A stretch of DNA of 16,909 nt from a virus. Position 1 is the first letter of the stretch, and the number at the start of each line of letters is the position of its first letter. The translations under genes and the position numbers were made by a program. Location: UHGV virus genome UHGV-0043514; one strand, given 5' to 3'. Under the pieces are notes generated by a model that made no database searches, was not told where the DNA came from, and was given only the letters and a program-made list of their open reading frames with translations. This document shows, in pieces, positions 6,440 to 16,909 of the stretch.

Positions 6440-6530
6440 TGGCTTAAATTTAAGACTTCTTAATTTATTGGTCAAGTGCATTTTTGAAGAAAACTTAATT
6501 TTATGGACGTGAATTTAGTTTGTCTTTGAT
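6440..6530 (-). promoter_or_regulatory. OL/pL region: P22-type repressor operator(s) and leftward early promoter
   Basis: ATTTAAGACTTCTTAATT (6448-6465) has the same TTAAGA/TCTTAA half-site organisation as the OR sites; AT-rich; sits between the repressor gene and nutL/N. Confidence 0.5.
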
Positions 6531-6543
6531 TTTTAACGGGAAA

Positions 6544-6564
6544 TAAAAAAGGGGCGAAAGCCCC
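6544..6564 (-). terminator. Intrinsic terminator directly after the repressor gene (minus strand)
   Basis: Plus strand aaaaaaaGGGGCgaaaGCCCC; on the minus strand a 5-bp GC stem with a tetraloop followed by U6-7; abuts the cI stop codon at 6565-6567. Confidence 0.55.
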
Positions 6565-7215
6565 TTAAGGAAGGTTTGCTAGCTTGGCATCAACGACAAC
6601 GCCAATGATTTTACAGTTCCCATTGATTTCAATCATTGGGTATTGTGGATTGAGTGGTTTCAGGAATTTTCTACCGGCATCAATAACTAACTTTTTGAAT
6701 GTCGCCTCGTTTTCTCCTTCAAGTTTGGCGACTACCAGCTTTCCATTACGTGGTTCGACTTCTGGGTCGACGAGAATAATCATCCCCTCAGGAATACTCA
6801 GTCCTGCCGGGGCAGTCATTGAATCGCCTTTAACGTCGAGCCAAAAAGAGTCTTCAGAACAATCTACCGTTGTGTCGTACCAGTTATCTATTGCACGCCT
6901 ATGATATGGCTCTACAGCTTCCATCCAACATCCTGCGCTTACCCAACTAATTAGAGGATACGAACCTCTTGGATCATGCCTGCTGTGATAGGCAATGTTT
7001 GAAAGACTATCCTCTCCTTTCAACAGGTAATCAGGGGAGCACTGCAAAGCCTTGGCTAAGGCCAATAGGTTTTCGCCATTGGGCTCAGTTTCAGATCGCT
7101 CCCATTGGGAAATAGCAACATTAGACACGCCAACCATCTTGCCAAGGGCAGCCTGCCTAATCTTGAGTTCTTTTCTGCGAGCGCGAATACGCTCACCCAT
7201 CAGTTGTGTATTCAT
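6565..7215 (-). CDS. cI: Phage repressor, P22 C2 type (216 aa): N-terminal helix-turn-helix, C-terminal LexA-like autopeptidase domain
   Basis: MNTQLMGERIRARRKELKIRQAALGKMVGVSNVAISQWERSETEPNGENLLALAKALQCSPDYLL... matches P22 C2 as recalled; catalytic-domain motifs GDSM and KLVVAKLEGENEATFKKL. Confidence 0.93.
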   Translation of the reverse strand: MNTQLMGERIRARRKELKIRQAALGKMVGVSNVAISQWERSETEPNGENLLALAKALQCSPDYLLKGEDSLSNIAYHSRHDPRGSYPLISWVSAGCWMEAVEPYHRRAIDNWYDTTVDCSEDSFWLDVKGDSMTAPAGLSIPEGMIILVDPEVEPRNGKLVVAKLEGENEATFKKLVIDAGRKFLKPLNPQYPMIEINGNCKIIGVVVDAKLANLP

Positions 7216-7290
7216 AGTTAAGACATCTTAAATAAACTTGACTTAAGATTCCTTTGGTGGATAATTTAAGTGTTCTTTAATTTCGGAGCG
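7216..7290. promoter_or_regulatory. OR operators with divergent pRM/pR
   Basis: AGTTAAGACATCTTAAAT (7216-7233), a middle site around 7237-7254, and ATTTAAGTGTTCTTTAAT (7264-7281, which matches the P22 OR1 sequence as I recall it); between the divergent repressor and cro genes. Confidence 0.7.
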
Positions 7291-7295
7291 AGTCT

Positions 7296-7481
7296 ATGTA
7301 CAAAAAAGATGTTATTGACCACTTCGGAACCCAGCGTGCTGTTGCTAAAGCACTAGGCATTAGCGATGCAGCAGTCTCTCAGTGGAAAGAAGTTATCCCA
7401 GAGAAAGACGCCTATCGATTGGAAATCGTTACAGCTGGCGCCCTGAAGTATCAAGAAAGTGCTTACCGCCAAGCGGCATAA
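7296..7481 (+). CDS. cro: Cro repressor (61 aa)
   Basis: MYKKDVIDHFGTQRAVAKALGISDAAVSQWKEVIPEKDAYRLEIVTAGALKYQ; helix-turn-helix; divergent from the repressor gene; GGAG Shine-Dalgarno. Confidence 0.9.
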   Translation: MYKKDVIDHFGTQRAVAKALGISDAAVSQWKEVIPEKDAYRLEIVTAGALKYQESAYRQAA

Positions 7482-9138: not shown

Positions 9139-10511
9139 GACAGGATATCGAAGCGAGCGTTATCGGTGGCCTGCTGATTGGTGGATTAACACCAACTGCC
9201 AGTGACGTTCTGGCAACGCTTGAGCCGGAAGCGTTTTCAATTCCGCTCTACCGGAAAGCCTTCGAGGTTATCCGCAAGCAGGCGCGAAACAGAAATTTAA
9301 TCGACGCGCTGATGGTTGCCGAGGCGTGCGGAGAGGAGCATTTCACGTCAATCCTGATGACCAGCAAAAACTGCCCGAGTGCCGCAAACCTGAAGGGATA
9401 TGCCGGAATGGTCGCGGATAACTTTCACCGCCGTCTGGTGCTGGAAATCATGGATGAAATGCGTGAACCAATTCAGAGCGGAACCATCGACGCATCGAGT
9501 CAGGCGATGGATGAACTTGTAAAGCGTCTTTCAGCCATCAGAAAGCCCCGTGACGAGGTTAAACCGGTACGGTTAGGGGAAATCATCACCGACTACACTG
9601 ACACGCTTGACAGGCGTCTGAGGAACGGAGAAGAGTCAGATACCCTGAAGACCGGAATCGAAGAACTTGACGCTATCACCGGAGGGATGAACGCGGAAGA
9701 CCTGGTGATTATCGCCGCTCGTCCTGGTATGGGTAAAACCGAACTGGCGCTGAAGATTGCCGAAGGCGTTGCAAGCCGCGTTATTCCTGGTTCTGACGTC
9801 CGGCGCGGGGTATTGATTTTCTCAATGGAAATGAGCGCATTGCAGATTGCAGAGCGAAGCATTGCCAACGCCGGGAGGATGTCGGTTAGCGTACTGCGAA
9901 ATCCTGCATCGATGGATGACGAGGGCTGGGAACGTGTTGCTAACGGCATGAGTCAGCTTGCAGATTTGGATGTATGGGTAGTCGATGCCTCGCGGTTATC
10001 GGTCGAAGAAATACGCTCAATCGCAGAACGGCACAAACAGGAAAATCCAAACCTGTCACTCATCATGGCGGATTATCTTGGCCTGATTGAGAAGCCGAAA
10101 GCAGACCGCAACGACCTCGCAATTGCTCACATCTCCGGAAGCCTGAAGGCGATGGCGAAAGACCTGAAAACACCGGTTATCTCCCTGAGTCAGCTTTCGC
10201 GCGATGTTGAGAAGCGACCAAACAAACGCCCGACAAACGCAGATTTGCGTGATTCAGGAAGCATTGAGCAGGACGCAGACTCAATCATCATGCTCTATCG
10301 GGAAGCTGTATATGACGAGAACAGTAGCGCCGCGCCATTTGCTGAAATCATCGTGACGAAAAACCGTTTTGGCTCGCTTGGTACGGTTTACCAGCGGTTC
10401 TGTAACGGACACTTTGTTGCATGTGACCAGGATGAAGCCAGACAGATTTGCACAGCATCAAATGCACCTGCTGCGCGTGGCAGACGATATGCACAAGGGG
10501 CTGACGTATGA
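9135..10511 (+). CDS. DnaB-family replicative helicase (P22 gp12-like, 458 aa)
   Basis: Walker [16 protein letters not shown]; DnaB-type C-terminal RecA-like domain ([42 protein letters not shown]); start overlaps the initiator stop. Confidence 0.9.
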
Positions 10512-10597
10512 CCATCTACATCACTGAGCTAATAACAGGCCTGCTGGTAATCGCAGGTCTTTTTATTTGGGGGAGAGTAAATCGTGGTTGAGTTAAT
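10508..10597 (+). CDS. Small hydrophobic peptide (29 aa), translationally coupled to the helicase gene (ATGA overlap)
   Basis: [27 protein letters not shown]; single predicted transmembrane helix; not in the ORF track (below its size cut-off). Confidence 0.3.
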
Positions 10598-10790
10598 TTT
10601 CTCTGCATTGAGGATTCTCGGTGCTATGTGGATGGTGTCGACGTTCATTGTGGTTGTCGGAAGTTTTGTCCGGTTGGTAGGCGAAGGTAAAGACCTGGTG
10701 GGTGTGCTTTTCGGTAGCATTTTCCTGTGGGTGATTATCGGTGTTATGCCTGTTGTCGTTGCAAAAGTGGCGTGGCGTTTTGTGAGTTGA
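10584..10790 (+). CDS. Small membrane protein (68 aa, two predicted transmembrane helices)
   Basis: GTG start with a GGGGGAGAG Shine-Dalgarno-like stretch upstream; [68 protein letters not shown]. Confidence 0.45.
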   Translation: MVELIFSALRILGAMWMVSTFIVVVGSFVRLVGEGKDLVGVLFGSIFLWVIIGVMPVVVAKVAWRFVS

Positions 10791-10807
10791 ACTGAGGGTA
10801 AGTACCG

Positions 10808-11185
10808 ATGGACGAATCAAGAAAGCAGTTTGAAGAAAGTTGGTTGCGACGTGGAGGCGAATCATCAGACCTTATCCGTTACCCTGAAAATTACCATGAA
10901 ATTGGCAGTGGTGATATTGGTGGTCAATACGTGATGGACGATGTTCAAGGCCACTGGCAAACGTGGCAGGCATCGCGAGCAGCTATTGAACTGGATATCG
11001 ACTGGCCCGAATCGAATGACGACTTTTGGAAAGATGGTGAAGAAGGTGCTTATGCGATGGGGCATGAGGATGGGAAGGACAAAACGGTAATTGCAGTGAT
11101 GAAAGCTATCAGAGCCGCTGGAATTAAAGAGAAGAATTTCGATGAAGCAAATATACATACTTCGCAACGAAGCAATCAGAAATAA
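10808..11185 (+). CDS. Hypothetical acidic phage protein (125 aa)
   Basis: ATG with GAGGGT upstream; Asp/Glu/Trp-rich (DIDWPESNDDFWKDGEEGAYAMGHEDG); overlaps the ninB start by 44 nt. Confidence 0.5.
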   Translation: MDESRKQFEESWLRRGGESSDLIRYPENYHEIGSGDIGGQYVMDDVQGHWQTWQASRAAIELDIDWPESNDDFWKDGEEGAYAMGHEDGKDKTVIAVMKAIRAAGIKEKNFDEANIHTSQRSNQK

Positions 11186-11588
11186 CGCCATAGACGCCAT
11201 TCTCTCACTACCCATCGACGACAAGTCACCCCACGAAGTCCACGTTAGAGAACCCAAACGCAGCAAAGCGCAGAATGACCGTATGTGGCCGATGCTGAAC
11301 GATGTTTCGCGTCAGGTGCTATGGCATGGTCAACGGCTGGCGCCGGAAGACTGGAAAGACCTGTTCACTGCCCTGTGGCTTAAGACCAAAAAAATGGAGC
11401 AAAGAAGTGCGCCTGGTATCGACGGTGGCGTTGTTATGCTTGGCGTGCGTACCAGCAAAATGCGAAAGGCCAGCATGACTGAGCTTATCGAAATCATGTT
11501 CTGGTTCGGCTCAGAGCGCAACGTGCGGTGGAGTGATGACTCCCGGCGAGAGTATGAATGGTCACAACGAAAAGGGAAGGCTGCATGA
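11142..11588 (+). CDS. ninB: NinB-family protein (recombination-associated, lambda orf146 type; 148 aa)
   Basis: QNDRMWPMLNDVSRQVLWHGQRLAPEDWKDLFTA...[21 protein letters not shown] parallels lambda NinB (QNRKLWACLGDVSRQVEWHGRWLDAESWKCVFTA...) as recalled. Confidence 0.85.
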   Translation: MKQIYILRNEAIRNNAIDAILSLPIDDKSPHEVHVREPKRSKAQNDRMWPMLNDVSRQVLWHGQRLAPEDWKDLFTALWLKTKKMEQRSAPGIDGGVVMLGVRTSKMRKASMTELIEIMFWFGSERNVRWSDDSRREYEWSQRKGKAA

Positions 11589-12112
11589 CTATCAAATCAA
11601 ATACGCCATCACACGACAAGGACTGCTGGCAAACGCCGCTTTGGCTTTTTGATGCGCTGGATATTGAGTTTGGATTCTGGCTGGACTCGGCAGCGAGCGA
11701 CAAAAATGCTCTGTGCGCTCACTGGCTAACTGAGGCCGACGACGCGCTAAATTCTGAGTGGATAAGCCACGGTGCAATCTGGAATAACCCACCGTACAGC
11801 AATATCAGGCCGTGGGTGGAAAAAGCCGCTGAGCAGTGCATACAACAGCGACAGACGGTAGTTATGCTTGTGCCAGAGGATATGTCAGTCGGATGGTTCA
11901 GCAAGGCTCTGGAGAGTGTCGACGAAGTTCGCATTATCACTGATGGACGGATTAATTTTATCGAACCATCGACAGGGCTGGAGAAGAAGGGAAACAGCAA
12001 AGGCTCCATGCTGCTGATTTGGCGACCGTTCATCAGTCCTCGACGGATGTTTACTACCGTATCCAAAGCGGCATTGATGGCGATCGGGCAGGGCGTCAGG
12101 AGGGCGGCATGA
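11585..12112 (+). CDS. dam: Phage orphan DNA N6-adenine methyltransferase (Dam-like; 175 aa from ATG 11585, the track's ORF starts at 11558)
   Basis: Catalytic NPPY motif (IWNNPPYSN); N-terminal [22 protein letters not shown] typical of phage Dam-type methyltransferases; ATGA overlap with the ninB stop; no restriction endonuclease partner seen. Confidence 0.8.
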
Positions 12113-12285
12113 GGCGACAGCGACGAAGTTTCACCGACATCATCTGCGAAAACTGCAAATACCTTCCAACGAAACGCTCCAGAAATAAACGCAAGCCAAT
12201 CCCAAAAGAATCTGACGTAAAAACCTTCAATTACACAGCTCACCTGTGGGATATCCGGTGGCTAAGACATCGTGCGAGGAAATAA
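12109..12285 (+). CDS. ninE: NinE-family protein (58 aa)
   Basis: [58 protein letters not shown], near-identical to lambda NinE as recalled; ATGA overlap with the methyltransferase stop. Confidence 0.8.
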
Positions 12286-12290
12286 GGGGA

Positions 12291-12320
12291 TTGACGCGAT
12301 GATTTATCCGGGGCTATATT
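12291..12320 (+). promoter_or_regulatory. Sigma70-like promoter (TTGACG, 17-bp spacer, CTATAT/TATATT) immediately after ninE
   Basis: -35 TTGACG at 12291-12296; -10 CTATAT at 12314-12319; predicted start near 12327. Confidence 0.5.
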
Positions 12321-12381
12321 CCCAGCATGCCAGCAAAATCTGGCGTCGGGATTGGCGTCCCGGATAGAGACCGCGACAGAC

Positions 12382-12404
12382 ACACGCCGCGAGCGTGTTT
12401 TTTT
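12382..12404 (+). terminator. Strong intrinsic terminator (ACACGC-CGCGA-GCGTGT followed by T7)
   Basis: 6-bp GC-rich stem, 5-nt loop, then tttttttatt; about 75 nt downstream of the predicted start of the 12291 promoter. Confidence 0.6.
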
Positions 12405-12565
12405 ATTGTCGAATGCACGCGCACATCTGAATTATGGTGGGCTGTGTGGGGGCGGAGAGATCCGCGCCGGTCGGTTTCCCGGTTACGCCAACCCTGCACA
12501 GTTCACCACCAGACGATTGGCGTCGTCGGTGGTGAGTTATTTAGAAACCACTCGAGGGCGTCATT

Positions 12566-13246
12566 ATGACAACTCAAATCTCTGTTGAAACTCTCTCCCC
12601 GATCACCCATAACCAGATTCCTGTTATTACCACCGAACTTTTGGCGCAGCTTTATGGCACAGAAATTCTGAACATCCAGGTTAACTTCACCAGAAACAAA
12701 GAGCGTTTTGTCGAAGGAAAGCACTTTTTTAAAGCATCTGGTGAGGAATTAAAAAATTTGCGACTTACTTTAAGTAAGTCACAAAACCCCATATCTCCCA
12801 AAGCCCGCTCCCTTATCCTCTGGACAGAACGCGGAGCAGCCCGTCATGCAAAAATGCTCGAAACCGATCAGGCGTGGGATGTGTTCGAAAAACTGGAAGA
12901 CTGCTATTTCAGCGAGTGCGAGAAAAATACTGGCAAACAAGAGAAGAAGCCCAACGGGCTTTCCGCAAAAGAAACAGACATCCTTGTATGGCTGTGGGAT
13001 TATGCCAACCGCTCACAGGCATTGTTCCGTGAGTTGTATCCCGCATTAAAACTGATTCAGTCTGGCTATTCCGGCATATGCCACGACTACGGCTATGAGT
13101 TCTCGTATATCATCGGGAGGGCGAGGGGCGTTTTAATTAATCACACGCGGGATATAGATATTTATGAGCCTGACGGGCCGACGAACCTTCTGGCATGGGA
13201 AAGGCTTAAGAACAAAGAGTTGCCGCCTTCACTGCATCGCTACTGA
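12566..13246 (+). CDS. ORF6N-domain (KilA-N-related) phage regulatory / antirepressor-like protein with an unassigned C-terminal half (226 aa)
   Basis: N-terminal half ([16 protein letters not shown]...[19 protein letters not shown]...[38 protein letters not shown]) fits the ORF6N pattern as I recall it; residues from about 120 to 226 match nothing I recognise; GAGGG Shine-Dalgarno 7 nt upstream. Confidence 0.6.
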
Positions 13247-13263
13247 CAATTGACAACTTAACA

Positions 13264-13288
13264 AACCCAGCTTCGGCTGGGTTTTTTA
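13264..13288 (+). terminator. Intrinsic terminator (AAACCCAGC-UUCG-GCUGGGUUU followed by T-run), bidirectional in form
   Basis: Perfect GC-rich stem with UUCG tetraloop, flanked by an A-run upstream and T6 downstream; 18 nt after the ORF6N gene stop. Confidence 0.6.
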
Positions 13289-13314
13289 TTGCTGAATTTT
13301 CAATGTGAGAGGAC

Positions 13315-14043
13315 ATGACAATGAATGAGCTGATAAATAACAATGCCATCAAAATGACAAGCATTGAAATCGCTGAGTTGGTGGGAAGCCAACACGGTAA
13401 TGTCAGAATATCAATAGAACGTCTGGCAAAGCGTGGGGTGATTCAACTTCCTCCAATGCAAAAAGTTGAAAATAAACAAACAATTAGCCCTAACAAATTC
13501 ACAAGCGTGTATATATTCGAAGGCGAACAAGGTAAGCGCGATAGTATCATTGTCGTCGCCCAGTTGTCGCCAGAGTTCACCGCTCGCCTTGTTGACCGCT
13601 GGCGAGAACTCGAAGGGGCAACCGCGAAAATCCCACAAACCTTCTCTGAAGCATTGCGCCTCGCGGCTGACCTTGAAGACCAGAAGGCTGAACTGGAGAA
13701 ACAGCTTGCTCTCGCAGCACCTAAAGTTGATTTTGCCGATCGCGTTGGCGAGGCCAGCGGAATTTTGATTGGAAACTTTGCAAAGGTTGTTGGAATTGGT
13801 CCAAACAAACTGTTTGCGTGGATGCGCGATCACAAAATCCTTATTGCTTCAGGTTCCCGGCGCAATGTGCCAATGCAGGAATATATGGATCGCGGCTATT
13901 TCACAGTGAAAGAAACAGCGGTCAACACAAATCACGGAATACAGATATCGTTCACTACAAAAATCACCGGACGTGGCCAACAGTGGCTGACCAGAAAGTT
14001 GCTCGATAACGGAATGCTGAAAGTAACAGGGGAGGCTGCTTAA
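13315..14043 (+). CDS. Phage antirepressor-type protein: Rha-family N-terminal domain plus KilAC C-terminal domain (242 aa; start may be ATG 13321 or 13354)
   Basis: N-terminus MTSIEIAELVGSQHGNVRISIERLAKRGVIQ (Rha-like); C-terminus DFADRVGEASGILIGNFAKVVGIGPNKLFAWMRDHKILIASGSRRNVPMQEYMDRGYFTVKE (KilAC pattern); GAGAGG Shine-Dalgarno suits ATG 13321. Confidence 0.8.
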   Translation: MTMNELINNNAIKMTSIEIAELVGSQHGNVRISIERLAKRGVIQLPPMQKVENKQTISPNKFTSVYIFEGEQGKRDSIIVVAQLSPEFTARLVDRWRELEGATAKIPQTFSEALRLAADLEDQKAELEKQLALAAPKVDFADRVGEASGILIGNFAKVVGIGPNKLFAWMRDHKILIASGSRRNVPMQEYMDRGYFTVKETAVNTNHGIQISFTTKITGRGQQWLTRKLLDNGMLKVTGEAA

Positions 14044-14333
14044 TGGCTAACCTACGCAAAGAAGCGCGTGGCAGAGAATGCCAGGTACGTATTTACGGCG
14101 TATGCAATGGTAATCCTGAAACTACAGTTCTGGCACATTACCGGATGGCTGGAATTTGCGGAACTGGAATGAAGCCTGACGACCTGATCGGCGCATGGGC
14201 TTGTAGCGCGTGTCACGATGAAATCGACCGACGTACCCATAACCTCGACAACAAAGACGCCAGACTTTACCACCTCGAAGGCGTGATCAGGACGCAGGCG
14301 ATACTGCTGAAGGAGGGGAAGATTAAGTCATGA
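14043..14333 (+). CDS. DUF1364 / YbcO-like zinc-binding protein (NinX-like, 96 aa)
   Basis: ARGRECQVRIYGVCNGNPETTVLAHYR...CSACHDEIDRR; four Cys plus His pattern typical of the YbcO family in lambdoid nin regions; GGAGG Shine-Dalgarno; TAATG overlap with the upstream gene. Confidence 0.7.
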   Translation: MANLRKEARGRECQVRIYGVCNGNPETTVLAHYRMAGICGTGMKPDDLIGAWACSACHDEIDRRTHNLDNKDARLYHLEGVIRTQAILLKEGKIKS

Positions 14334-14692
14334 ACGAATATCAGTTTGTGCTTCCATACCCACCGTCGATGAACACCTACTGGCGAAGACGGGGGAGTCA
14401 ATACTACATCAGCGATAAAGGCCAGAAATACCGAAAAGACGTTCAGCAAATCATCCGCCAACTCAAGTTAGACATTTTCACCAAATCACGACTCCGCATC
14501 AAAGTCATCGCAGACGTTCCAGACTCCCGCCGCCGCGACCTCGACAACATCCTGAAAGGTTTACTCGACTCCCTTATCCACGCCGGATTTGCGGAAGACG
14601 ACGAGCAATTCGATGACATTCGCGTAATTCGTGGTGTGAAAGTACCAGGCGGACGGCTTGGAATAAAAATCACCGAACTGGAGAACGTATGA
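14330..14692 (+). CDS. rusA: RusA Holliday-junction resolvase (120 aa)
   Basis: PPSMNTYWRRRG...DVPDSRRRDLDNILKGLLDSLIHAGFAEDDEQ...GGRLGIKITE parallels E. coli RusA (RRRDLDN motif); ATGA overlap with the upstream gene. Confidence 0.88.
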   Translation: MNEYQFVLPYPPSMNTYWRRRGSQYYISDKGQKYRKDVQQIIRQLKLDIFTKSRLRIKVIADVPDSRRRDLDNILKGLLDSLIHAGFAEDDEQFDDIRVIRGVKVPGGRLGIKITELENV

Positions 14693-14877
14693 ACGCCACA
14701 ATTCAAACGATACCAGAACTTCTTATCCAGACACGAGGCAATCAGACCGAAGTGGCAAGGATGCTTTCCTGCGCAAGAGGAACAGTGCTCAAGTACAACC
14801 GAGACAGCAAAGGTGAGCGTCACGTAATAGTTAACGGCGTCCTGATGGTCAAACAGGGCAAGAGGGGTAGACCATGA
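14689..14877 (+). CDS. ninH: NinH-like protein (62 aa)
   Basis: TIPELLIQTRGNQTEVARMLSCARGTVLKYNRD...VIVNGVLMV parallels lambda NinH (TIPDMLVEAYGNQTEVARRLKCSRGTVRKY...) as recalled. Confidence 0.75.
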   Translation: MNATIQTIPELLIQTRGNQTEVARMLSCARGTVLKYNRDSKGERHVIVNGVLMVKQGKRGRP

Positions 14878-15497
14878 GACTCGAAAGTGTAGCTAAATTT
14901 CATTCGCCAAAAAGCCCGATGATGAGCGACTCACCACGGGCTACGGCTTCTGACTCTCTTTCCGGTACTGATGTGATGGCTGCTATGGGGATGGCACAAT
15001 CACAGGCCGGATTCGGAATGGCTGCATTCTGTGGTAAGCACGAACTCAGCCAGAACGACAAACAAAAGGCTATCAACTATCTGATGCAATTTGCACACAA
15101 GGTATCGGGGAAATACCGTGGTGTGGCAAAGCTCGAAGGAAATACTAAGGCAAAGGTACTGCAAGTGCTCGCAACATTCGCTTATGCGGATTATTGCCGT
15201 AGTGCCGCGACGCCGGGCGCAAGATGCAGAGATTGCCACGGTACAGGCCGTGCGGTTGATATAGCCAAAACGGAGCAGTGGGGGAGAGTTGTTGAGAAAG
15301 AGTGCGGAAGATGCAAAGGTGTCGGCTATTCAAGAATGCCAGCAAGCGCCGCATATCGCGCTGTAACGATGCTAATCCCAAACCTTACTCAACCCACCTG
15401 GTCACGCACTGTTAAGCCGCTGTATGACGCTCTGGTGGTGCAATGCCACAAGGAAGAGTCAATCGCAGACAACATTTTGAATACGGTCACACGTTAG
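14874..15497 (+). CDS. Q: Late-gene antiterminator Q, lambda type (207 aa)
   Basis: MRLESVAKFHSPKSPMMSDSPRATASDSLSGTDVMAAMGMAQSQAGFGMAAFCGKHELSQNDKQKAINYL... matches lambda Q as recalled, including the Zn-finger region CRDCHGTGR...CGRCKG. Confidence 0.93.
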   Translation: MRLESVAKFHSPKSPMMSDSPRATASDSLSGTDVMAAMGMAQSQAGFGMAAFCGKHELSQNDKQKAINYLMQFAHKVSGKYRGVAKLEGNTKAKVLQVLATFAYADYCRSAATPGARCRDCHGTGRAVDIAKTEQWGRVVEKECGRCKGVGYSRMPASAAYRAVTMLIPNLTQPTWSRTVKPLYDALVVQCHKEESIADNILNTVTR

Positions 15498-15539
15498 CTG
15501 CATGATTGCCACGGATGGCAACATATTAACAGCATGATA

Positions 15540-15568
15540 TTGACTTTTTGAATAAAGTTGGGTAAATT
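15540..15568 (+). promoter_or_regulatory. Late promoter pR' (TTGACT, 17 bp, TAAATT) with the overlapping Q-utilisation (qut) region
   Basis: -35 TTGACT at 15540-15545, -10 TAAATT at 15563-15568; immediately downstream of Q, as in lambda. Confidence 0.75.
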
Positions 15569-15604
15569 TGACATCAACGATGGATAAATGCACTCGTTAA
15601 ATAA

Positions 15605-15633
15605 AGCCCTGAGTTAATAGCTCGGGGCTTTTT
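15605..15633 (+). terminator. tR'-type intrinsic terminator (AGCCCUGAG-UUAAUAG-CUCGGGGCU followed by U5)
   Basis: 9-bp stem (one G-U pair), T-run 15629-15633; would give a pR' leader RNA of about 60 nt unless Q-modified polymerase reads through. Confidence 0.65.
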
Positions 15634-15776
15634 GTGTTTTAAGCACGGCCTTTCTGAAAGCACATCAAACCAAATACCAGACAGACAAAAATAATCACCT
15701 TATCCGCTGTGGCTACGGTGCGGTGTGCTTTGCATAAAAGAAAACCAGCGCAATGGCTGGATTCGTGAAAGCGGGT

Positions 15777-15811
15777 GGCAAGAGGTTGCGCTAACAACCT
15801 CCTGCCGTTTT
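15777..15811 (+). terminator. Second terminator-like hairpin upstream of S (GGCAAGAGGTTG-CGCTAA-CAACCTCCTGCC followed by GTTTT)
   Basis: 12-bp stem with one mismatch followed by a short T-run; the sequence from about 15770 to S matches the lambda late-leader region as I recall it. Confidence 0.45.
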
Positions 15812-15910
15812 GCCCGTGCATATCGGTCACGAACAAACCTGATTACTAAACACAGTAGCCTGGATTTGTTCTATCAGTAATCGACCTTATTCCTAATTAA
15901 ATAGAGCAAA

Positions 15911-15940
15911 TCCCCTTATTGGGGGTAAGACATGAAGATG
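15911..15940 (+). promoter_or_regulatory. S dual-start regulatory structure (CCCC-TTATT-GGGG hairpin plus tandem ATG AAG ATG starts)
   Basis: tCCCCttattGGGGgtaagacATGaagATG; the known lambda arrangement giving S107 (antiholin) and S105 (holin). Confidence 0.7.
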
Positions 15941-16255
15941 CCAGAAAAACATGACCTGTTAGCCGCCATTCTCGCGGCAAAGGAACAAGGCATCGGGGCA
16001 ATCCTTGCGTTTGCAATGGCGTACCTTCGCGGCAGATATAATGGCGGTGCGTTTACAAAAACAGTAATCGACGCAACGATGTGCGCCATTATCGCCTGGT
16101 TCATTCGTGACCTTCTCGACTTCGCCGGACTAAGTAGCAATCTCGCTTATATAACGAGCGTGTTCATCGGCTATATCGGCACTGACTCGATTGGTTCGCT
16201 TATCAAACGCTTCGCTGCTAAAAAAGCCGGAGTAGAAGATGGTGGAAATCAATAA
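15932..16255 (+). CDS. S: Holin S (class I, lambda S107/S105; 107 aa)
   Basis: [67 protein letters not shown]... matches lambda S as recalled; three transmembrane segments. Confidence 0.93.
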
Positions 16256-16715
16256 TCAACGTAAGGCGTTCCTCGATATGCTGGCGTGGTCGGAGGGAAC
16301 TGATAACGGACGTCAGAAAACCAGAAATCATGGTTATGACGTCATTGTTGGCGGAGAGCTATTCACTGATTACTCCGATCACCCTCGCAAACTTGTCACG
16401 CTAAACCCAAAACTCAAATCAACAGCAGCCGGACGTTACCAGCTTCTTTCCCGTTGGTGGGATGCCTATCGTAAGCAGCTTGGCCTGAAAGACTTCTCTC
16501 CGAAAAGCCAGGACGCTGTGGCATTGCAGCAGATTAAAGAGCGTGGCGCTTTACCGATGATTGATCGCGGTGATATCCGTCAGGCAATCGACCGTTGCAG
16601 CAATATCTGGGCTTCACTGCCGGGCGCTGGTTATGGTCAGTTCGAGCATAAGGCTGACAACCTGATTGCAAAATTCAAAGAAGCTGGCGGAACGGTCAGA
16701 GAGATTGAGGTATGA
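16239..16715 (+). CDS. R: Endolysin R (lambda-type lytic transglycosylase, 158 aa)
   Basis: [55 protein letters not shown]... matches lambda R as recalled; overlaps the S stop. Confidence 0.93.
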
Positions 16716-16909
16716 GCAGAGTAACCGCGATTATCTCCGCTCTGGTTATCTGCATCATCGTCTGCCTGTCATGGGCTGTTAATCATTACCGTGATAACGC
16801 CATTACCTACAAAGCCCAGCGCGACAAAAATGCCAGAGAACTGAAGCTGGCGAACGCGGCAATTACTGACATGCAGATGCGTCAGCGTGATGTTGCTGCG
16901 CTCGATGCA
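16712..16909 (+). CDS. Rz: Spanin Rz (i-spanin), 5' portion only; continues beyond the window
   Basis: ATG 16712 overlaps the R stop (ATGA); [66 protein letters not shown] matches lambda Rz; the embedded Rz1 would start beyond the window end. Confidence 0.88.

Follow-up and report, generated by a model that had tools for sequence, protein, structure and literature searches.

A probable C4/IsrK-type antirepressor cassette beside roi in the nin region of a lambdoid prophage, UHGV-0043514

The virus genome UHGV-0043514, a stretch of 16,909 nucleotides (nt) called the window in the following, carries an insertion (12286-14043) between ninE and the DUF1364-rusA-ninH-Q block, with two genes on the plus strand, ant (12566-13246) and roi (13315-14043). 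An earlier description made from the letters alone (the sequence-only reading) had regarded the insertion as one autonomous, conditionally expressed cassette with a layout that could not be assigned to any described system. For the present analysis the region 11800-14400 was re-read, and 10500-16909 was scanned for promoter-like and terminator-like sites. The flanking genes named earlier agree with Pfam, which places Dam and NinE on the upstream side and YbcO/DUF1364, RusA, NinH and Q downstream. Comparison with related prophages and the breakpoints of BLAST alignments divide the insertion into two separable modules, ant (12296-13299) and roi (13300-14040). The first of these, from its promoter to its terminator, very probably represents a self-contained antirepressor cassette of the type known from P1 immI and Gifsy-1 isrK.

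The cassette opens with a predicted sigma-70 promoter (12291-12320, plus strand), which consists of the -35 box TTGACG (12291-12296), an 18-nt spacer and the -10 box TATATT (12315-12320), with transcription predicted to start at ~12327. This promoter had been pointed out before, and with 10 of 12 consensus matches TTGACG-18-TATATT is indeed the best such site in 10500-16909; as a class, promoter-like sites are not enriched there (6 found vs 6.8 expected). When 16 leaders (the window, Gifsy-1, P1, six E. coli phages, seven further Enterobacterales) were aligned with MAFFT, this promoter came to stand opposite P1c4/P51b, which is annotated as a promoter in P1, and opposite the sequence that precedes isrK in Gifsy-1. 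A repressor operator at the cassette promoter was looked for and not found: matches to P22-type operators cluster at OL and OR only, with none at 12286-12330.

An Rfam scan at gathering thresholds gave three matches, all on the plus strand, two of which cover the segment directly downstream: isrK (RF01394) at 12327-12403, full length 1-77, with 73.6 bits (gathering score 50), and c4-a1b1 (RF03163) at 12314-12366, with 49.8 bits (gathering score 46.7). By virtue of the isrK match, what had been described as a promoter/terminator unit is an IsrK-type short RNA (12327-12404), built from two hairpins, a spacer and an intrinsic terminator, and carrying the decoy sites a1 and b1. The terminator scan located its stem at 12382-12398 and its U-run at 12399-12404, just where a terminator had been proposed, and the stem is identical in sequence to that of the Gifsy-1 IsrK terminator. 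The second strong terminator of the sequence-only reading was recovered as well: it lies at 13263-13290 on the plus strand (stem 13263-13284 followed by a U-run; 9 pairs, 5 of them G-C; fold z = -3.9) and closes the ant cassette. The promoter spacer contains a further element, in that 12306-12314 (ATCCGGGGC) can base-pair with 12357-12365 (GTCCCGGAT), the 3' side of hairpin a1; most of the 16 loci preserve this stem (86.8% of cells paired, four pairs with changes on both sides; TTCAGGC/GCCTGAA in P1), and such a 'third stem' was mentioned by Weinberg et al. (2010). The stem can form only in transcripts begun upstream of the cassette promoter, for example by read-through from pR, and the decoy RNA could thus fold differently in lytic and lysogenic transcripts.

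The stretch between the first terminator and ant (12405-12565) is not the empty spacer it had been taken for. A tRNA scan of the window returned no genes, so this structured segment is not a tRNA; the third Rfam match identifies it as a C4-type antisense RNA (RF01695, 12430-12513, plus strand, 66.7 bits, gathering score 45), which is followed by target sites. The predicted fold has a minimum free energy of -44.5 kcal/mol (z = -4.2) and leaves two segments unpaired, b' (12472-12478, CGGTTTC) in the loop of hairpin 2 and a' (12485-12491, ACGCCAA) in the junction, the naming of the a and b sites being that of the P1 annotation. Each of them has two partners on the same strand. Upstream, in the IsrK-like RNA, are the decoy sites a1 (12352-12358, TTGGCGT; 7 nt) and b1 (12367-12373, GAGACCG; 7 nt including one G-U pair), and downstream, in the ant leader, are the targets a2 (12517-12523, TTGGCGT; 7 nt with a') and b2 (12544-12549, GAAACC; 6 nt with b'). 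The putative Shine-Dalgarno sequence of ant (GAGGG, 12554-12558) and its AUG at 12566 come next. The loop of IsrK hairpin 1 (GCAAAAUC) was also tried as a C4 target and dropped, since the C4 loop covaries with the spacer site 12367-12373 instead.

These elements recur ahead of related genes. Eighty loci encoding ORF6N-domain relatives were collected, one genome per species, and the Rfam scan found C4 or the related sRNA-Xcc1 ending 35-52 nt ahead of the gene in 17 of 20 distant ORF6N loci; in an 18th (L024) both RNAs lie several hundred nt further upstream. Many of the scanned loci also have isrK/c4-a1b1 about 100 nt upstream of this RNA. Across the 16 aligned leaders the C4 fold is kept in 97.2% of cells, with compensatory changes in 13 of 27 pairs. 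The a sites vary in concert, with eight distinct 7-mers among the 16 loci (TTGGCGT, TTAGCAC, TTCGAAC, TTTGCAC, TTGGAAC, TTGGTCT, TTGAGAC and, in P1, TTGACAG are examples), and pairing holds in 95.5% of cells for a1-a' and likewise for a'-a2, in each case with compensatory changes in 5 of 7 pairs. A slid partner is paired in only 21-48% of cells, none of 500 shuffles reaches the observed score, and the sole breaks in a-site pairing are P1 cells misaligned by MAFFT. The b sites align less well, and for this reason the longest complementary runs were compared, which average 6.9 nt (b1) and 7.4 nt (b2) for cognate pairs vs 4.6 and 4.9 nt for non-cognate ones. The b sites also change with the a sites from locus to locus, with weaker support than for a. 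In all aligned loci b2 is located at, or shortly before, the ribosome-binding site or the start codon of the gene that follows. The two codes reassort between E. coli phages: phi419 has the a sequence of the window with another b, and PA2 has its b sequence with another a.

Two side observations belong to this survey. In Pectobacterium, Photorhabdus, Serratia, Arsenophonus and others, sRNA-Xcc1 (RF02221) takes the place of C4 ahead of ORF6N homologues (L007, L008, L012, L015-L017, L019, L020, L022 and L025, at ~2370-2465 in each). These loci keep the two-site logic, with one site upstream and one at the ribosome-binding site; the pairing of CTCGTTGA with TCAACGAG in L008 is one example. In function, sRNA-Xcc1 would accordingly seem to correspond to C4. 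Some genomes hold two complete IsrK-plus-C4 modules about 1-2 kb apart (L009, 1246-1446 and 2250-2451; L004, 38-226 on the minus strand and 2251-2449).

The protein encoded at 12566-13246 on the plus strand has 226 amino acids (aa). Its ORF6N domain, noted before, lies at the N-terminus and agrees with Pfam. The C-terminal half, previously left unassigned, has a clear identity, as residues 126-198 match P22_AR_C (PF10548; E = 2.8e-23); no match to P22_AR_N was found in Ant by Pfam. Over its full length the protein matches PHROG 377, 'anti-repressor Ant', at 1.8e-82, so that the antirepressor role suggested earlier for the first gene gains support from its relatives. Ant and its counterpart in the Phi24B-type phage Min27 share 81% identity, the C-terminal halves being nearly identical; the N-terminal 118 aa of the window's Ant are 71% identical to Gifsy-1 AnrP, the two proteins being unrelated beyond this point, and its C-terminal 104 aa are 81.7% identical to P22 Ant. 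Pfam, PHROGs and the direct identities were sufficient to settle the assignments of both Ant and Roi; searches with the two proteins against the sequences of solved structures gave no meaningful matches. On the minus strand inside ant, a 13-base-pair (bp) hairpin with a T-run (12757-12785, ~aa 64-73) resembles a terminator for antisense transcription, and this is where Ant differs most from Min27 Ant and AnrP.

A probable partner of the antirepressor is found in the same genome. The immunity region (6450-7481) is of the P22 type, with a P22-type cro and P22-type operators at OL and OR, including ATTTAAGTGTTCTTTAAT, and the repressor (6565-7215, minus strand) matches P22 C2 in its N-terminal domain (1.9e-39). 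Given a C-terminus like that of P22 Ant, the archetypal Ant target is thus encoded in the very prophage that carries the cassette, and Ant would be expected to bind and inactivate this C2-type repressor. The P22-type immunity sits in an E. coli lambdoid prophage with lambda-type int/xis, sieB, a DnaB-like replication gene and a Q of family PF03589.

The second gene, roi (13315-14043, plus strand), encodes 242 aa with a Rha-like N-terminus and a KilAC (ANT) domain. It is a Rha/KilAC protein as stated before, with a strong match for KilAC (PF03374, 6.4e-33) and a weak one for Rha (26.4 bits, under the cut-off of 29.9). It is 98% identical to the annotated Roi of Min27, and may be regarded as a homologue of Roi of HK022 and of the Shiga-toxin (Stx) phages, which is described as a DNA-binding protein in secondary citations. 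In PMC3430580 the N-terminal 125 aa are given as shared with HK022 Roi. The KilAC domain is also the C-terminal domain of P1 Ant1. There are two in-frame ATGs 6 nt apart (13315 and 13321), of which RefSeq and the gene calls at related loci use the second, giving 240 aa, and a Shine-Dalgarno-like GAGAGGA (13305-13311) suits either of them. The claim that each gene is bracketed by terminators holds for ant and fails for roi: no terminator follows it, and its stop overlaps the start of the next gene (TAATG, 14041-14045). Its position between ninE/ninF and ninG or DUF1364 is also found in E. coli 5283 and N39. The roi module is a separate, ordinary gene of the nin operon, contiguous with the nin genes downstream, and it would be expressed only by transcription that passes the terminator of the cassette. 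Further away, downstream of Q, a promoter-like TTGACT-17-TAAATT (15540-15568) and a 13-bp terminator (15603-15631) are what is expected of pR' and tR', and would give a short constitutive RNA.

The borders of the ant module can be read from alignments with related prophages, where the BLAST breakpoints fall at 12295/12296, within the -35 box, and at 13299/13300, just past the terminator. E. coli N39 has the layout of the window. In E. coli 5283 the order is ninE-ninF-roi-DUF1364, with roi directly behind ninF, no terminator between them and no ant cassette, and in E. coli A26, with ninE-ninF-hypothetical-DUF1364, both ant and roi are absent. The alternative alleles at the cassette site are thus ninF, or ninF together with a hypothetical gene, and the proposed indel is borne out as presence/absence polymorphism. 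As the breakpoints coincide with promoter and terminator, the ant cassette has the anatomy of a moron, with its own 5' promoter, its own 3' terminator and variable presence, which roi has not; of the single autonomous cassette proposed earlier, the ant part therefore stands, while roi belongs to the nin operon. The two modules are also unequally common: of 5426 complete E. coli genomes, 444 carry the ant module and 973 carry roi, counted at a coverage of at least 80%. A copy that is 99.9% identical occurs in one E. coli genome, and the exact Ant protein is encoded on 21 contigs, where its neighbours vary. A total of 157 records of the phage collection match 12200-14100 at a coverage of at least 80%; most of them are Stx phages, in which the genes are annotated as ant and roi. 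The same leader precedes other antirepressor-like genes outside the nin region, an ORF6N-only protein in the early region of PA2 and a Bro-N protein in phiV10, and it is also present in P1 and, downstream of Q, in Gifsy-1. The borders of the indel, the RNA families, the complementarities with their covariation, and the protein domains and identities were all obtained directly.

This distribution bears on the simplest conceivable explanation, namely that both genes are passive members of the delayed-early pR/nin operon and that the promoter-like and terminator-like sites are incidental. It is in keeping with the lack of enrichment of promoter-like sites in the scanned region, N-antiterminated transcription from pR would pass both terminators, and roi truly behaves in this way. 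As an account of ant it is very improbable: the promoter and both terminators keep their position across distant hosts and coincide with the mosaic breakpoints of the ant module, and the leader stands ahead of antirepressor-like genes outside nin regions in PA2, phiV10, Gifsy-1 and P1.

Taken together, the cassette is best understood as an antirepressor gene controlled by a C4 antisense RNA and an a1/b1-bearing, IsrK-like RNA, as described for P1/P7 immI and for isrK-orf45-anrP of Gifsy-1, a reading to which a probability of roughly 0.8 may be assigned and which provides the layout with the described counterpart it had been thought to lack. Homology suggests C4 processing, translational repression, decoy action and repressor binding, and the following sequence of events can be proposed. 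The strong, operator-free promoter would fire in the lysogen, and most transcripts would end at the first terminator, yielding a 77-nt IsrK-like RNA with the decoys a1 and b1. The transcripts that read through would contain C4, which by homology with P1 may be cut out and stable. In P1 this release is reportedly carried out by RNase P. C4 would then use a' and b' to bind a2 and b2, which lie shortly before the ribosome-binding site, and switch translation of Ant off; since there is no icd here, it would act directly on ant. Whenever the decoy RNA exceeds C4, or further target transcripts arise by read-through from pR, a2 and b2 would be freed and Ant made, which could inactivate the P22 C2-type repressor of its own prophage or that of a co-resident prophage and so promote or accelerate induction. 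The a and b sequences would serve as address codes that set which C4 RNAs control which ant genes.

Much of this has precedents in the literature. In P1, C4 blocks ant expression, and c4 defines the heteroimmunity of P1 and P7 (PMC8198154). As far as it is quoted in the supplement of PMC2864571, the idea of a1 and b1 as competitors for a2 and b2 was put forward by Citron and Schuster in 1990. For Gifsy-1 it was reported that the isrK promoter drives transcription of anrP into an mRNA that is not translated, that translation of AnrP increases more than 100-fold when IsrK is provided in trans, that AnrP induces Gifsy-1, and that a stable processed RNA, STnc1160, overlaps the position of C4 (Hershko-Shalev et al. 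2016, PMC4825925). In lysogens of Gifsy-1, transcription of both IsrK and STnc1160 is high in every condition that was tested (PMC7067206). In Phi24B, deletion of ant lowered the activity of the late promoter pR' after induction and left superinfection unchanged (PMC3064807). The sequence-only reading had itself named ordinary conserved genes of assigned function as the finding that would speak against it, and this is largely what emerged, in that the genes are named ant and roi in many Stx-type lambdoid phages and a knock-out phenotype for Phi24B ant is published.

Several points weigh against antisense control by C4 in just this form. The b2 site comprises only 6 nt, and a gap of 4 nt separates its end from the Shine-Dalgarno sequence, which b2 of P1 overlaps; this makes direct occlusion of the ribosome less certain. 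With icd absent and the upstream open reading frame (uORF, see below) not overlapping ant, the coupling steps of P1 and Gifsy-1 are not transferable as they stand. Furthermore, co-expression of STnc1160 strengthened the toxicity of IsrK, which does not fit a simple model of C4 as repressor and IsrK as decoy (PMC4825925), and Phi24B Ant is not known to bind CI (PMC3064807).

The uORF in question is the counterpart of Gifsy-1 orf45. It occupies 12434-12535 on the plus strand (33 codons), starts at a conserved AUG in the 5' strand of C4 and stops with TGA (12533-12535) 30 nt ahead of the ant AUG, without overlap. Among the 16 loci its length ranges from 14 to at least 49 codons, and its stop from 93 nt before the downstream gene to past the start codon of that gene; in P1 the corresponding reading frame ends inside C4. 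As frame, length and stop position are not conserved, orf45 was rejected as a conserved small protein needed here, and the uORF probably exists only because the C4 stem contains a conserved AUG. The authors of the Gifsy-1 study likewise found the nucleotide sequence of orf45 conserved and the peptide sequence not (PMC4825925). The same region contains an alternative hairpin (12503-12535, plus strand; z = -3.1), formed when TCACCACC, which is the 3' strand of the C4 stem, pairs instead with GGTGGTGA (12528-12535), so that a2 comes to lie near the tip; almost all of the 16 loci retain the outer 8-bp helix of this hairpin, which covaries little. With the GUUAUUU that follows it, the structure (12503-12543) could serve as a weak attenuator, but relatives do not share the U-rich tail.

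Such elements invite an explanation along the lines of Gifsy-1 alone, by which control would be purely positive: the read-through mRNA folds into an inactive form, IsrK opens it, the uORF is translated and Ant is made by translational coupling, without C4 ever acting as a free repressor in trans. This is the experimentally supported model in the closest relative, the start codon of the uORF and the partners for pairing in cis are conserved in the window, and the alternative hairpin overlaps the end of the uORF. It is nevertheless regarded as a minority possibility, since 30 nt separate the end of the uORF from the ant AUG, the uORF varies in length and stop to the point of ending inside C4 in P1, a2 and b2 covary with C4 independently of the uORF frame, and stable processed STnc1160 does exist in Gifsy-1.

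A different purpose altogether may also be considered, in which the cassette serves mainly anti-phage or superinfection immunity in the lysogen instead of aiding induction of its own prophage, either because C4 silences incoming ant genes of the same class or because the ORF6N protein itself defends the cell. In favor of this one can cite the role of c4 as the immunity determinant that gives heteroimmunity in P1/P7 and the many reassorting a/b classes (phi419, PA2). PADLOC, which has no match for Roi, also relates the ORF6N domain of Ant to the candidate system PDC-S05, with scores of at most 29 bits that cover the generic ORF6N domain only, and on these weak matches an annotation as a defence system was not adopted. 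As Phi24B ant is without effect on superinfection and expression of AnrP induces its own prophage, immunity as the main purpose seems rather doubtful; it complements C4/IsrK control more than it excludes it.

As to the significance of the locus, the module is best annotated as a C4/IsrK-controlled antirepressor cassette plus roi, and no longer as a system of unknown kind. Descriptions already exist of the RNA families, of both genes and of their pairing, and Rfam-based lists record copies of C4 and isrK in EDL933. What is mildly new is only the synthesis of P1 c4, Gifsy-1 IsrK and Stx ant, together with the reassortment of a/b codes between E. coli phages: the literature found treats P1 c4, Gifsy-1 IsrK and Stx-phage ant separately, where the comparison reveals one common architecture; in a 2025 review c4 and IsrK appear as entries unconnected with each other, and no link of Stx-phage ant to C4/IsrK control was met with in the literature found. 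An annotation of such prophages by proteins alone misses the RNA genes that carry the regulatory logic. The comparison suggests that antisense RNA, with specificity codes that can be exchanged, controls the acceleration of Stx-phage induction by Ant. A bolder idea, advanced here tentatively, is that Stx-type and other lambdoid prophages use C4 and the IsrK decoy as a combinatorial system of RNA addresses, with the decoy possibly folding differently according to transcript start; if true, the a/b codes would decide which co-resident prophages trigger each other's antirepressors, with consequences for the induction of Shiga-toxin phages in polylysogens.

Among the known systems Gifsy-1 (NC_010392) has the same three Rfam elements in the same order ahead of STM2616 (anrP), about 90% identity over the aligned leader and the start of ant, and compensatory differences in the C4 stems. 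The promoter, IsrK RNA, terminator, C4-type RNA and a/b sites are all shared. On the other hand, the cassette of Gifsy-1 lies downstream of Q and that of the window in the nin region upstream of Q; the orf45 stop overlaps the anrP start (AUGA), whereas the uORF of the window is frame-shifted to 33 codons; and AnrP has an unrelated tail without Pfam match where Ant ends in P22_AR_C. The cassette of the window, moreover, ends in a plain terminator, with no isrJ match at the gathering threshold.

The immI region of P1/P7 shares the C4 fold, a1/b1 upstream and a2/b2 downstream of it, a promoter that aligns with P51b, and an antirepressor as cargo. The P1 record annotates P1c4 (P51b), a1, b1, C4 RNA, a2 and b2, then icd and ant1/2, and even the spacing is similar, as a2 begins 4 nt after C4 in both, a2 and b2 are 29 nt apart in P1 and 27 nt in the window, and the next gene starts soon after b2. 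This next gene is an icd-like reading frame in P1 and ant itself in the window. The P1 operon promoter is under the main repressor (Op51), whereas that of the window is free of an operator; b2 overlaps the Shine-Dalgarno sequence in P1 and ends 4 nt before it here; and P1 Ant has KilAC at its C-terminus, in contrast to the ORF6N and P22_AR_C domains of the present Ant.

The lambdoid Stx phages (Phi24B/Min27, 2851, 1717, and Nil2 with antA/roi) have the same ant-roi genes in the same order and at the same ninE-side position, and in several of them the leader is 95-96% identical to that of the window. Downstream they continue with ninG instead of DUF1364-rusA-ninH, the immunity of the window prophage is of the P22 type, and the first 27 residues of its Ant are closer to Gifsy-1 AnrP. 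P22, finally, resembles the window in the C-terminal domain of Ant and in the C2-type repressor that is its likely target. The N-terminus is ORF6N here, however, and there is no room for arc and mnt, as ant abuts the terminator and roi follows; where P22 employs Mnt, Arc and the overlapping antisense RNA sar, the window has a co-oriented C4 RNA.

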